Assembly (NCBI GenBank): GCA_035275345.1
Contig: DATEMY010000298.1
Span: 1,290-65,289, forward strand
Direction of reading: 5' to 3'
DNA: 64,000 nucleotides
DNA from: Blastocatellia bacterium
GTDB lineage: Bacteria; Acidobacteriota; Blastocatellia; RBC074
Shown here: positions 28,202 through 31,552 of the stretch, in pieces
Numbering within the stretch: the first letter of the stretch is position 1
Layout of the letters: every line of letters begins with the position of its first letter
Notes under the pieces: model-generated
Database searches by the model: none
What the model was told of the DNA's origin: nothing
What the model saw: only the letters and a program-made list of their open reading frames with translations
Translations under genes and position numbers: made by a program

Positions 28202-28318
28202 GGAAGGCGATAAAACAAAGCGTTGGGACTGTAGCGCCCCTCAGGCATGATGATTGCCTTAACTCATCCTGAAAGTCGAATAAGAAATCCATTGAAGGAT
28301 CTAAAACCTGGAGGATTT

Positions 28319-29104
28319 ATGTATCAAATAAGAAATATGGGTGAGGCTATTTGGCAATCGTTCACTCAGGCGCTCAGCGTGTTTATGAGTTTCCTGCCCG
28401 CGTTGATGGGCGCGGTCATTGTGCTGATTGCCGGCTGGTTTATCTCCAGTTTTCTGGCGCGGTTGATCGAGCGTGGCCTCAATGCGATCGGGTTGGAGCG
28501 GGCGGCCGAGCGTTCCGGGATCAGGCGTTTCATCGAACAGTCTGGATCGCAGTGGACTGTTTCCGGCATTATTGCGACGTTGATCAAGTGGTCAATCTTC
28601 CTGATCTTTATTCAAGCCGCGGCGTCGCTGTTCGGCATGGCGCAGATCACGGCGATTATCAACAGCGTTATCCTCTTCATTCCAAAATTGATTGTGGCGC
28701 TGGCCATTATTGTCATAGGATCACTGATCGCGAAGTTCCTGGCGGGGGCGGTGCGCGGGTCTCTATCCGAGATGGATGCGCCCAACGCCGGATTGTTCGC
28801 CAGGGTGACGCAATATGCGGTAATAGGGTTTGCGATTGTTGCGGCCTTCAACCAGATCGGCATCGCCCAAACCGTAGTTAACACATTGCTGGTCGGATTG
28901 GTTGGGGCGCTGGCGCTGGCGCTCGGGCTGGCCTTTGGCCTCGGAGGGCGTGAAGTCGCCGCGCAGATTACGCAATCCTGGTACAACAAGGGGGCCAGCC
29001 TGGCCGACAAAATCAAACAACGCTCCGAAGATTTTCCGCATAGCGACTTCTACCGCTCGCCTGGAAGAGAGCCGGGGCAGTTTGAACCGCGTCTGGGCGA
29101 TTGA
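28319..29104 (+). CDS. membrane protein with 'conserved TM helix' repeats
   Basis: Has repeated TM plus amphipathic units (LPALMGAVIVLIAGWFISSFLARLIERGL...). The start is uncertain; the ORF opens at 28247. Confidence 0.6.
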   Translation: MYQIRNMGEAIWQSFTQALSVFMSFLPALMGAVIVLIAGWFISSFLARLIERGLNAIGLERAAERSGIRRFIEQSGSQWTVSGIIATLIKWSIFLIFIQAAASLFGMAQITAIINSVILFIPKLIVALAIIVIGSLIAKFLAGAVRGSLSEMDAPNAGLFARVTQYAVIGFAIVAAFNQIGIAQTVVNTLLVGLVGALALALGLAFGLGGREVAAQITQSWYNKGASLADKIKQRSEDFPHSDFYRSPGREPGQFEPRLGD

Positions 29105-29157
29105 GAATCGGTTGCTGGAGCTACGGTAGCGGCGACGATCAAAGGAGTTTTTAGGAT

Positions 29158-29535
29158 ATGGCGCAAGCGACTCAACAGGAATCAGTGCGCAGAGTGACTG
29201 CTGAAGAGGTAATGCGGCGGCTGGATCGCGGCGAAGCTGTGGTCTTCGTTGACTCACGCAATCCGCAAGCGTGGAGTCAATCGAAGGAAAAACTGCCAGG
29301 CGCGATCCGAATTCCCGCTGGCGAAGTCGAGCAGCATTTAAAAGAAATACCGAAAGCTTGCCTAGAAGGCGGCCCGGAAGGCTGTTGGATAATTACCTAT
29401 TGCACCTGACCGCAGGAAGCATCGAGCGCCAGTCTGGCGCAAGAATTAATCCGGCGCGGTTATCGTGACGTTTATCCGCTCCAGGGCGGAATGGACGCGT
29501 GGTGGCATGCGGGTTTCCCGCTCGAACAAAAATGA
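29158..29535 (+). CDS. single-domain rhodanese-like protein interrupted by an in-frame TGA (selenocysteine candidate or pseudogene)
   Basis: The protein reads ...WIITYCT-TGA(29407-29409)-PQEASSASLAQELIRRGYRDVYPLQGGMDAWWHAGFPLEQK. The same frame continues through the rest of the rhodanese fold to TGA 29533-29535. A hairpin, gcgccagtctggcgc, lies at 29426-29440. Confidence 0.6.
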
Positions 29536-29642
29536 AATAGTTGGGAGTTCCGCATTCATGCGGTCAGGTTGAATGAACTAGACAATCCGCGTGAAGGCCG
29601 AACTCCAAACGGGAACCAAACGCTTACTTGGAAATGTGGGGG

Positions 29643-30200
29643 ATGAAGACGCGCACTGCGGTTTTTTCGATGGCGTTAATCGCGCTTGTTTTGTTCGGCT
29701 CTGGTTGCGACACTGCGGAACGAGATACCGCGACAGCGCCGGCAATGACCGCGACGCCAACGATTACGCCGATGATCACTCCTATAACATCTCCGGCGCC
29801 GGCGGCTTCGCCTGTCGCCCCGGAGTGGTTAGCCGACGGCGCCACACATAGCGTGGCTGGCGTCACCGGCGCTCCGAAGGCCCTGATCGGCAAAACTGTG
29901 ACCGTCGTCGCGGAGATTGAGGAAGTCTACGACTCGCGCTCTTTCGAGCTTGATGGAGGCGACTCTCTGACTGGCGGCAGTAAGAAGGACCTGCTGACGC
30001 TGGTTCCCAAAGTCGGCGGTTTTCCATACATTGACGAGCAGTGGAAGAACAGCCGGACGCGAGTGACCGGCGTCATCCAATGGATGGATCCCAAAACCGT
30101 CGAACGCGAAATCGGCTGGGAATTGCCGCGGAGTTTGGAAGCCAAATTCAAAGGCCAGCCCGTGCTGATCGCCCGTTCGGTCGAACGACTTGAGAGGTGA
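29643..30200 (+). CDS. lipoprotein of unknown function
   Basis: Has a signal peptide with a lipobox (ALIALVLFGSGC) followed by a Thr/Pro/Ala-rich linker. Confidence 0.6.
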   Translation: MKTRTAVFSMALIALVLFGSGCDTAERDTATAPAMTATPTITPMITPITSPAPAASPVAPEWLADGATHSVAGVTGAPKALIGKTVTVVAEIEEVYDSRSFELDGGDSLTGGSKKDLLTLVPKVGGFPYIDEQWKNSRTRVTGVIQWMDPKTVEREIGWELPRSLEAKFKGQPVLIARSVERLER

Positions 30201-30226
30201 TCAGGTGGGGCAGAGGAACATCGGAA

Positions 30227-31552
30227 GTGGAGATTCTATTTATCATACTTTTGCTGATCGCCAATGGAGTCTTCGCGATGTCGGAGATGGCGATCGTTTC
30301 ATCGCGGCGGGTGCGGTTGCAGCATCGAGCCGAAAAGAACGACATCGGAGCGCGCGCAGCCCTTGAACTGGCCGACGCGCCGGATCGTTTTCTATCGACG
30401 ATTCAGATCGGCATTACGCTGATCGGCATTCTGGCCGGGGCCTTCGGCGGCGCGACTATCTCAAAGCAAATGACGGACCAACTCAGCCGCATTCCCGCGC
30501 TCGCTCCCTACAGCGAAGCCATCAGCCTGGTCGTCGTGGTGGTGGCGATCACTTACCTTTCGTTGGTCGTGGGAGAACTGGTTCCGAAACGGCTGGCGTT
30601 GAACAATCCCGAACAGATCGCTTCGCGAGTCGCCAGGCCGATGCAGTTTCTATCACGTCTGGCTTCGCCCGCAGTGCGCATACTCAGCGCTTCATCCGCT
30701 TTTTTGTTGCGGATGTTGAGGGTCAAACCTCCCGCCCATCCGCCCGTTACCGAAGAAGAGGTCAAAATAATGATTGACCAGGGAATGCAGGCCGGCGTGT
30801 TTGAAGTGGCCGAGCACGATCTGGTGGACAATATTTTTCGCCTGGCCGATCAAAAGATTCCGCAACTGATGACGCCGCGTCCGGATGTCCTCTGGCTCGA
30901 CACCAAATCGCCGGTCGAGGAGATTCGCCAGCAAATTATCAACAGCCCTTACTCTCGAATGCCGGTTTGCGAGGGGACGCTCGATAATGTCCTGGGCGTG
31001 GTCAAGGCCAGAGACCTGTTAGCGAGAATCCTTTCCGGCGAGCCGCTCGATCTGCGCGCTACGCTGCGCCAGCCGCTTTATGTGCCGGAGACCACAACCG
31101 GTTTGCAGTTGCTGGAATTGTTCAAAGGTTCGACGACGCATATTGCTGTGGTCGTTGATGAACACGGCGCGATGGAAGGGCTGGTGACGATGAATGATGT
31201 GCTGGAAGCCATAGTCGGCGGCCTGCCACCACAGCCAGGACAGGCTGAAAGCTACGCCGTCCGGCGAGAGGACGGATCCTGGTTGCTCGACGGCCGATTG
31301 CCCATCGCAGACTTCAAGGAGATATTTTCGCTCGGCAAGCTGCCCAGGGAAGAGGAAGGCGCTTACTATACCCTGGCCGGATTCATCATGACATACCTTG
31401 GTCGATTGCCATCAGCCTCCGATTATTTCGTCTGGAACGACCTTAGAGTCGAAGTCGTGGACATGGATCGCCGACGCGTGGACAAAGTCCTGGTCAACCG
31501 CCTTGAGACAGAGGAAGAGAGACGGGGGGACAGGGGGACAAGGGGACAGTGA
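30227..31552 (+). CDS. CNNM/DUF21-CBS-CorC_HlyC family protein (hemolysin/TlyC-like)
   Basis: Has a DUF21 TM domain (FAMSEMAIVSS...FLSTIQIGITL), a CBS pair and a CorC_HlyC C-terminal domain. A GTG at 30227 gives the canonical N-terminus; the ORF opens at 30197. The last 15 codons lie in a repeat arm. Confidence 0.88.
   Translation: MEILFIILLLIANGVFAMSEMAIVSSRRVRLQHRAEKNDIGARAALELADAPDRFLSTIQIGITLIGILAGAFGGATISKQMTDQLSRIPALAPYSEAISLVVVVVAITYLSLVVGELVPKRLALNNPEQIASRVARPMQFLSRLASPAVRILSASSAFLLRMLRVKPPAHPPVTEEEVKIMIDQGMQAGVFEVAEHDLVDNIFRLADQKIPQLMTPRPDVLWLDTKSPVEEIRQQIINSPYSRMPVCEGTLDNVLGVVKARDLLARILSGEPLDLRATLRQPLYVPETTTGLQLLELFKGSTTHIAVVVDEHGAMEGLVTMNDVLEAIVGGLPPQPGQAESYAVRREDGSWLLDGRLPIADFKEIFSLGKLPREEEGAYYTLAGFIMTYLGRLPSASDYFVWNDLRVEVVDMDRRRVDKVLVNRLETEEERRGDRGTRGQ

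Follow-up and report, generated by a model that had tools for sequence, protein, structure and literature searches.

The 64,000-nucleotide stretch of DNA analyzed here (the window) carries, at positions 29158 to 29535 of the forward strand, a coding sequence that very likely specifies a rhodanese selenoprotein. From the ATG at 29158, the frame runs to an in-frame TGA at 29407-29409, and the resulting short open reading frame (ORF; 29158-29409) comprises 83 residues that end in CWIITYCT. Beyond this TGA, another 41 codons (PQEASSASLAQELIRRGYRDVYPLQGGMDAWWHAGFPLEQK) follow in the same frame up to a second TGA at 29533-29535, which is the true stop codon in the translation of the complete gene; coordinates and translation agree with those of the initial annotation, which had been made from the DNA letters alone. 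The read-through product is a single-domain protein of 125 residues, in which the first TGA corresponds to a predicted selenocysteine (Sec) at position 84. Two codons upstream, the TGC at 29401-29403 encodes Cys82, the partner of Sec84 in a C-x-U motif, and its alignment column is invariant apart from a single locus described below. A Shine-Dalgarno-like AAGGAG, proposed from inspection of the upstream region, is located at 29142-29147 on the same strand, 10 nt 5' of the ATG. A promoter and terminator scan of positions 28950 to 29700 returned nothing relevant. The gene is flanked by genes for an MscS-type protein with transmembrane helices (28247-29104), a lipoprotein-like ORF (29628-30200), and a CNNM/CBS/CorC transporter (30197-31552). 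These were considered as conserved operon partners and rejected, since their conservation does not extend beyond the genus and they show no functional link.

The read-through protein matches the Pfam family Rhodanese (PF00581) over residues 14 to 117 with 47.2 bits (gathering threshold, 22.2), which bears out the earlier claim that the remainder of a rhodanese fold lies past the TGA. An AlphaFold2 (AF2) model, for which an alignment of 10 sequences served as input, adopts a rhodanese domain (pLDDT, 87.1; pTM, 0.81), and the top Foldseek matches of this model in the Protein Data Bank (PDB) were all rhodanese domains, with TM-scores, normalized to the query length, of 0.71 or less. The elements modeled past the TGA are a helix (residues 85 to 99), a strand (residues 105 to 108), and a further helix (residues 111 to 117). 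Full-length homologues with Cys align straight across the TGA position. Residues 66 to 77 (29353-29388) of the window protein contain an 8-residue insertion (KACLEGGPEGCW) where the usual form is K/R-D-R-x. This insertion (ACLEGGPE) precedes the strand that bears the C-x-U motif and is accompanied by two additional cysteines, Cys68 and Cys76, which are absent from those close homologues whose sequences were read (e.g., P0003, with GGPEGGPEGRW).

A GC-rich hairpin (GCGCCAGUCUGGCGC) is found at 29426-29440 of the forward strand, within codons Ser90 to Gln95, and its first base is 16 nt past the TGA; sequence and folding thus coincide with what had initially been described. Its core can be written as GCGCC(A)-GUC-(U)GGCGC. 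The minimum free energy (MFE) of the hairpin alone is -8.7 kcal/mol (z = -3.35 versus shuffled sequences), and values of -10.4 and -11.9 kcal/mol were obtained for 29422-29444 and 29407-29446, respectively. The published model of the bacterial selenocysteine insertion sequence (SECIS) (PMC13188914, Fig. 2 legend) specifies (i) an apical loop of 3 to 9 nt and an upper stem of 4 to 16 bp, (ii) a G in the first two loop positions, with the pattern N1-G-[G/U]-N-N2, and (iii) a UGA-to-loop spacing of 16 to 37 nt and an MFE of -7.5 kcal/mol or lower. The hairpin in the window has the loop A-G-U-C-U of 5 nt (3 nt with the A-U pair closed), a stem of 5 to 6 bp, a spacing of 21 to 22 nt, and an MFE of -10.4 to -11.9 kcal/mol, all of which lie within these limits, and the initial assignment of a GU-containing loop to the range of bacterial SECIS elements was correct. 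A possible lower extension of 2 bp (U16-A38 and C17-G37; 29422-29444, forward strand) is predicted across a 2x2 internal loop but weakly supported, with partial conservation; among 55 loci with TGA, the first of these pairs is present as U-A or U-G in 47 and the second as C-G in 27. The MFE fold of the larger segment 29400-29470 predicts a long-range pairing of UGACCGC with GCGGUUA (z = -1.87), which we left outside the SECIS. A search of 29100-29650 against Rfam (E <= 10), which holds no model for this type of bacterial SECIS, retrieved no SECIS or other relevant family, and a miRNA match in this search, on the opposite strand, was rejected as a chance hit.

To compile homologues, 5.8 billion proteins were searched, and 149 homologous proteins were retrieved. 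One class consists of proteins of approximately 110 amino acids that read ITYCTCP[HN]EASSA and consequently possess a Cys at the position of the TGA, in accordance with the motif YCTCPxE that the initial annotation had given for related rhodaneses. The other class is formed by fragments of 68 to 95 amino acids, mostly 79, and every truncated homologue whose sequence was read ends exactly at YC[T/S]. NCBI entries exist for several of these fragments under the name "rhodanese-like domain-containing protein."

We subsequently compared 80 homologous loci at the DNA level, which derive from different Acidobacteriota genomes labeled Blastocatellia, Pyrinomonadaceae, Chloracidobacterium, or Terriglobales. 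Codon 84 is TGA in 59 and TGT or TGC in 21 of these loci, a recurrence of TGA that greatly exceeds what chance would produce, and the Sec/Cys pairs that the initial annotation had proposed to look for in relatives are thus abundant. In every locus with TGA, the frame 3' of this codon is open to a conserved C terminus with the pattern P-x-E-[AG]-S-S-A ... G-[YWF]-[KR] ... GG[FLM][DE]AW ... P; in the alignment with the homologues, P85, E87, S89, L97, G101, L108, G111, A114, and W115 are among the invariant residues, and the downstream variation is concentrated at third codon positions. Orthologues in the three same-genus genomes G001, G006, and G007 are 72 to 75% identical and contain one TGA each. 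According to a maximum-likelihood tree, the Sec/Cys state changed at least three times, and two of these changes are forced by well-supported branches. Cys forms are nested within Sec-bearing clades, and a clade dominated by Terriglobales is uniformly of the Sec type (17 of 17). Cys82 is conserved in all loci except one (L027:3232-3240; JAJVID010000065.1; same-genus, G003:C2:7072-7434), in which the codons TAC TGA ACC TGA CAG correspond to a U-x-U motif. This sole U-x-U case among the 80 loci has the same hairpin (GCGCCAGUGUGGCGC) 19 nt past the second TGA and an intact downstream frame; it may represent a double-Sec variant that relies on a single SECIS, or else an error or a pseudogene.

The conservation of the hairpin was assessed in 55 TGA loci and 16 Cys loci that encode the near-identical peptide S-S-A-x-[VL]-A-Q. 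The cells of the 5-bp stem were paired in 273 of 275 cases in the TGA loci versus 48 of 80 cases in the Cys loci. Of the TGA loci, 53 of 55 had the full stem, compared with only 3 of 16 Cys loci (Fisher P = 9e-10, a value that overstates independence, since there are only about 2 to 3 independent Sec/Cys transitions). The four synonymous sites within the hairpin are fixed or nearly so in the TGA genes, with C at column 24 (55/55), U at column 27 (51/55), and G at columns 30 (55/55) and 33 (50/55), whereas these four columns vary freely in the Cys genes; the third positions that flank the hairpin (columns 15, 18, 42, and 45) are variable in both sets. The five TGA sequences with an A at column 33 have a U at column 21, which is a compensatory change from C-G to U-A; this covariation concerns a single pair, and the remaining pairs are invariant, which by itself is uninformative on pairing. 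Of the loop positions, G26 never varies and U27 hardly does, which holds for TGA genes exclusively. Three Cys-form loci (L041:3193-3252, L045:3193-3252, and L070:3220-3279) have retained the whole 5-bp stem and lost the G-U of the loop, which reads AAUGU, GAGGU, and GAAGU, respectively; by their sequences, these loci seem to have switched from Sec to Cys recently, with their SECIS elements in decay.

The source assembly is a metagenome-assembled genome (MAG) of 11.6 Mb in 703 contigs, with 89% completeness and 4.3% contamination. It contains a tRNA-Sec gene (selC), which was identified with Rfam RF01852 (65.3 bits; cut-off, 47) and called by ARAGORN as tRNA-SeC with the anticodon tca; a tRNA scan of the window found none, and the gene is located on another contig. 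selA (555.8 bits), selB (340.2 bits), and selD (355.5 bits) were detected in the same assembly. All four genes, for which the initial annotation had recommended a search, are therefore present with scores above the curated cut-offs, and it is MAG binning that links them to the organism of the window contig. The selD gene (G000:C294:26899-27825; L106) has one in-frame TGA of its own, in the N-terminal segment MVDCAG-U-ASKLSP, and therefore encodes a Sec-containing SelD. A genome-wide reassignment of TGA was considered and rejected: TGA is the commonest stop codon of the long ORFs in the window, terminating 21 of 37, which indicates that the codon has not been reassigned genome-wide.

Taken together, the presence of the Sec machinery, the TGA/Cys pairs, the coding conservation downstream, the fit to the SECIS model, and the retention of the stem along with the TGA make it very likely that TGA 29407-29409 is a selenocysteine codon. 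We estimate a probability of roughly 90% that positions 29158 to 29535 are one gene that encodes a cytoplasmic, single-domain rhodanese selenoprotein of 125 residues in or next to the catalogued C-x-U (form 3) family. The data support the standard mechanism of SelB/SECIS recoding and no new mechanism. During translation, the hairpin at 29426-29440, 21 to 22 nt beyond the UGA, would present its small G-U loop, SelB carrying Sec-tRNA(Sec) would bind to it, and the UGA at 29407-29409 would be decoded as selenocysteine instead of causing termination, with selC, selA, selB, and selD being provided by the genome.

Several other readings of the TGA have to be weighed against selenocysteine insertion. 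UGA read-through by Trp or Cys tRNAs occurs in bacteria, and the codon could in principle be recoded by a near-cognate tRNA that inserts Trp or Cys or by a genome-wide reassignment. We consider this quite improbable, as TGA ends more of the long ORFs in the window than any other stop codon and is also the true stop of this very gene, the assembly has a full Sec pathway that includes a Sec-containing SelD, the hairpin conforms to the model of a SelB-binding SECIS and has decayed in the Cys lineages, and the position alternates specifically with Cys. It is very improbable that the TGA is a genuine terminator and that the 83-residue N-terminal fragment is functional, with or without a separate C-terminal peptide. 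Gene callers and GenBank do list entries of 79 to 83 amino acids as "rhodanese-like domain-containing protein," but such a fragment would be devoid of the active-site loop and of the last helix-strand-helix of the AF2 model, the next in-frame start past the TGA, Met112, leaves merely 14 codons, and in-frame conservation of the 41 codons that follow the TGA extends to every TGA locus.

The probability of a pseudogene or of a sequencing or assembly error, in which a dead or miscalled gene has acquired TGA in place of the Cys codon TGT or TGC, is close to negligible. One substitution suffices for a change from TGC to TGA, and Cys-bearing homologues exist; however, the same TGA recurs in the 59 independent genomes mentioned above, which span Blastocatellia, Pyrinomonadaceae, and Terriglobales, the frame beyond it remains open to the conserved C terminus with third-position variation, and the presence of the hairpin tracks that of the TGA. 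The conservation of the codon across dozens of independent assemblies excludes a sequencing error, and on the basis of the TGA/Cys counts, the open frame, and the pattern in the tree, we consider a recent pseudogene to be excluded as well.

Several alignments place Sec84 at the site of the catalytic cysteine of rhodanese domains. HMMER aligns residues 84 to 123 without gaps to residues 65 to 103 of Escherichia coli GlpE, with Sec84 on Cys65, which we take to be the catalytic residue of GlpE. In the family profile, position 84 falls on the catalytic Cys of domain 2 of 1yt8 (NCAGRTRS) and of both domains of 6mxv (YCGGGFRS). Residue 84 and the conserved Gly101 are 17 residues apart, as are the Cys and Gly in 3tp9 and, presumably, in GlpE. 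Cys82, by contrast, is the residue that aligns with the Cys of BH2092 (PDB code 3NHV; ITYCWGPACNG) without a gap and with that of 3tp9 across a gap of 2 residues. A helix begins at residue 85 of the AF2 model. Sec84 probably occupies the canonical catalytic-Cys position, at the start of the active-site loop U-P-Q-E-A-S-S. The initial annotation was thus right that the TGA replaces a Cys, whereas its placement "next to" the active-site loop has to be revised, in that residue 84 is most likely the catalytic position itself.

With Cys82 two residues ahead of Sec84, the protein has a C-x-U motif, and all 80 loci possess either Sec or Cys at position 84. The loop of the family, U-P-[QHN]-E-[AG]-S-S, is acidic and contains neither Arg nor Lys. 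For this reason, a role in redox reactions or as a chalcogen carrier, with involvement of an Se-S bond, seems likelier than that of a classical thiosulfate:cyanide sulfurtransferase. The selenolate probably carries or transfers an S or Se atom, in the form of an Se-S or Se-Se adduct, and Cys82 and Sec84 may cycle through a selenenylsulfide. A more far-reaching proposal, which we advance only tentatively and consider rather doubtful as a whole, is that the C-x-U rhodaneses of Acidobacteriota form a distinct, phylum-wide subfamily with multiple paralogues, in which Sec is ancestral and Cys was derived at least twice, and in which Cys82-x-Sec84 would be a selenenylsulfide redox or Se/S-trafficking center rather than the site of a thiosulfate sulfurtransferase; on this view, the U-x-U gene of a same-genus genome would encode a double-Sec version that depends on one SECIS.

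The genome from which the window derives encodes four more rhodaneses that resemble the NCBIfam family NF041203, all of which have N-terminal extensions. Two of them have a TGA at the C-x-U position, namely, G000:C628:15106-15435 (reverse strand; L104) and G000:C216:24236-24565 (forward strand; L107), with the motifs LYCT-U-PHE and AYCS-U-PAE and a hairpin of the type GCGCC...GGCG[CU] at +19. The other two, G000:C12:10887-11234 and G000:C366:11001-11333, are Cys paralogues without the hairpin. In the C216, C12, and C366 paralogues, the extension resembles a signal peptide, that of C216 having a lipobox-like AIGC, and these three proteins are therefore probably exported, unlike the window protein. 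A second set of neighbors was observed in one group of 16 to 21 homologous loci that are mostly labeled Pyrinomonadaceae (e.g., L036:5-2956). As judged by reading their sequences, three ORFs upstream on the same strand are molybdopterin-oxidoreductase-like, GAF-domain (free-Met-sulfoxide-reductase-like), and pirin-like, and the ORF downstream is methyltransferase-like, which may hint at an oxidative-stress or redox neighborhood.

The gene, along with hundreds of orthologues from soil Acidobacteriota, has been deposited in the form of truncated "rhodanese-like" proteins of 68 to 95 amino acids. The data also support a wide use of Sec in aerobic soil Acidobacteriota, with three Sec-rhodanese paralogues and a Sec-containing SelD in this genome, and the replacement of Sec by Cys followed by SECIS decay provides a clean natural experiment on the upkeep of a SECIS within a coding sequence. 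No paper that describes this clade in Acidobacteriota was found within the searchable literature. The novelty is modest: this is a genuine gene with conserved counterparts among soil Acidobacteria, but its type of selenoprotein has already been catalogued.

Predictions of rhodanese-type selenoproteins date back to the mid-2000s, to the Sargasso Sea and GOS surveys (PMC1088965, PMC2398784), and the rhodanese-like selenoprotein form 3 with the motif C-x-U is listed in two articles (PMC13188914, PMC9312934), both of which credit it to their bSECISearch reference; the remark in the initial annotation that such proteins had been reported is well founded. By a wide margin, the best NCBIfam match of the window protein is NF041203 (rhodanese_LYCAU, "rhodanese-related (seleno)protein"), with 96.8 bits. 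The match is end to end, with residues 3 to 125 covering positions 13 to 126 of the 126-position model. As in this family and form 3, there is a single rhodanese domain of about 110 to 125 residues, Sec and Cys members are mixed, Sec is found two residues past a conserved Cys (TYCTU in the window protein, LYCAU in the model), and, as in form 3, the SECIS is located directly downstream within the coding sequence. The window protein differs in its 8-residue insertion, and its score is below the equivalog cut-off of 115 bits, which precludes strict equivalog membership. Ten relatives and the C628 paralogue from the same genome have scores of 92 to 113.7 bits. Among 201 evenly sampled Acidobacteriota genomes, NF041203-like loci (59 to 118 bits) occurred in 67 and mostly had one in-frame TGA, but only one genome had a hit above the cut-off. 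By these profile comparisons, the gene is a new member of the catalogued form 3 C-x-U family NF041203 or of an immediate sister clade that, with scores under 115 bits, has been overlooked by NF041203 and by automatic annotation. A lower cut-off for NF041203 or an added sister model would recover what appears to be a common soil selenoprotein.

The protein shares with the rhodanese selenoprotein forms 1, 2, and 4 (UxxS, UxxG) and with TsoB (UxxxxU; NF045694) the location of Sec in or at the active-site loop, but these have other motifs and other architectures, and its match to NF045694 amounts to 28.6 bits (cut-off, 805). The prototype of single-domain thiosulfate sulfurtransferases, GlpE of E. 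coli (PDB code 1GMX), has the same fold and size as the window protein, a loop of equal length that ends in S-S (CYHGNSS in GlpE, UPQEASS in the window protein), and the motif GG[FM][DE]AW, although the sequence similarity is weak (E = 2e-4). The window protein differs from GlpE in having Sec in place of Cys, an additional conserved Cys at -2, and a loop with an acidic Glu and without basic or His residues. At the RNA level, the closest reference is the SECIS of E. coli fdhF, a sequence that matches fdhF of at least 5,413 E. coli records with 100% identity and the apex of which folds as GCA-GGUC-UGC with a bulged U. The likeness to this apex that the initial annotation had noted holds for the small G-U loop, which sits on a G/C stem with an A-U closing pair and is located within the ORF directly past the UGA, but it does not extend to the bulged U or to the exact spacing. 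The apex in the window, GCGCCA-GUC-UGGCGC, has no bulged U, its G-U is at nt 26 to 27 from the U of UGA compared to nt 23 to 24 in fdhF, i.e., 3 nt or one codon further, and its helix is a short, perfect stem of 5 to 6 bp that dispenses with the long lower stem of fdhF.
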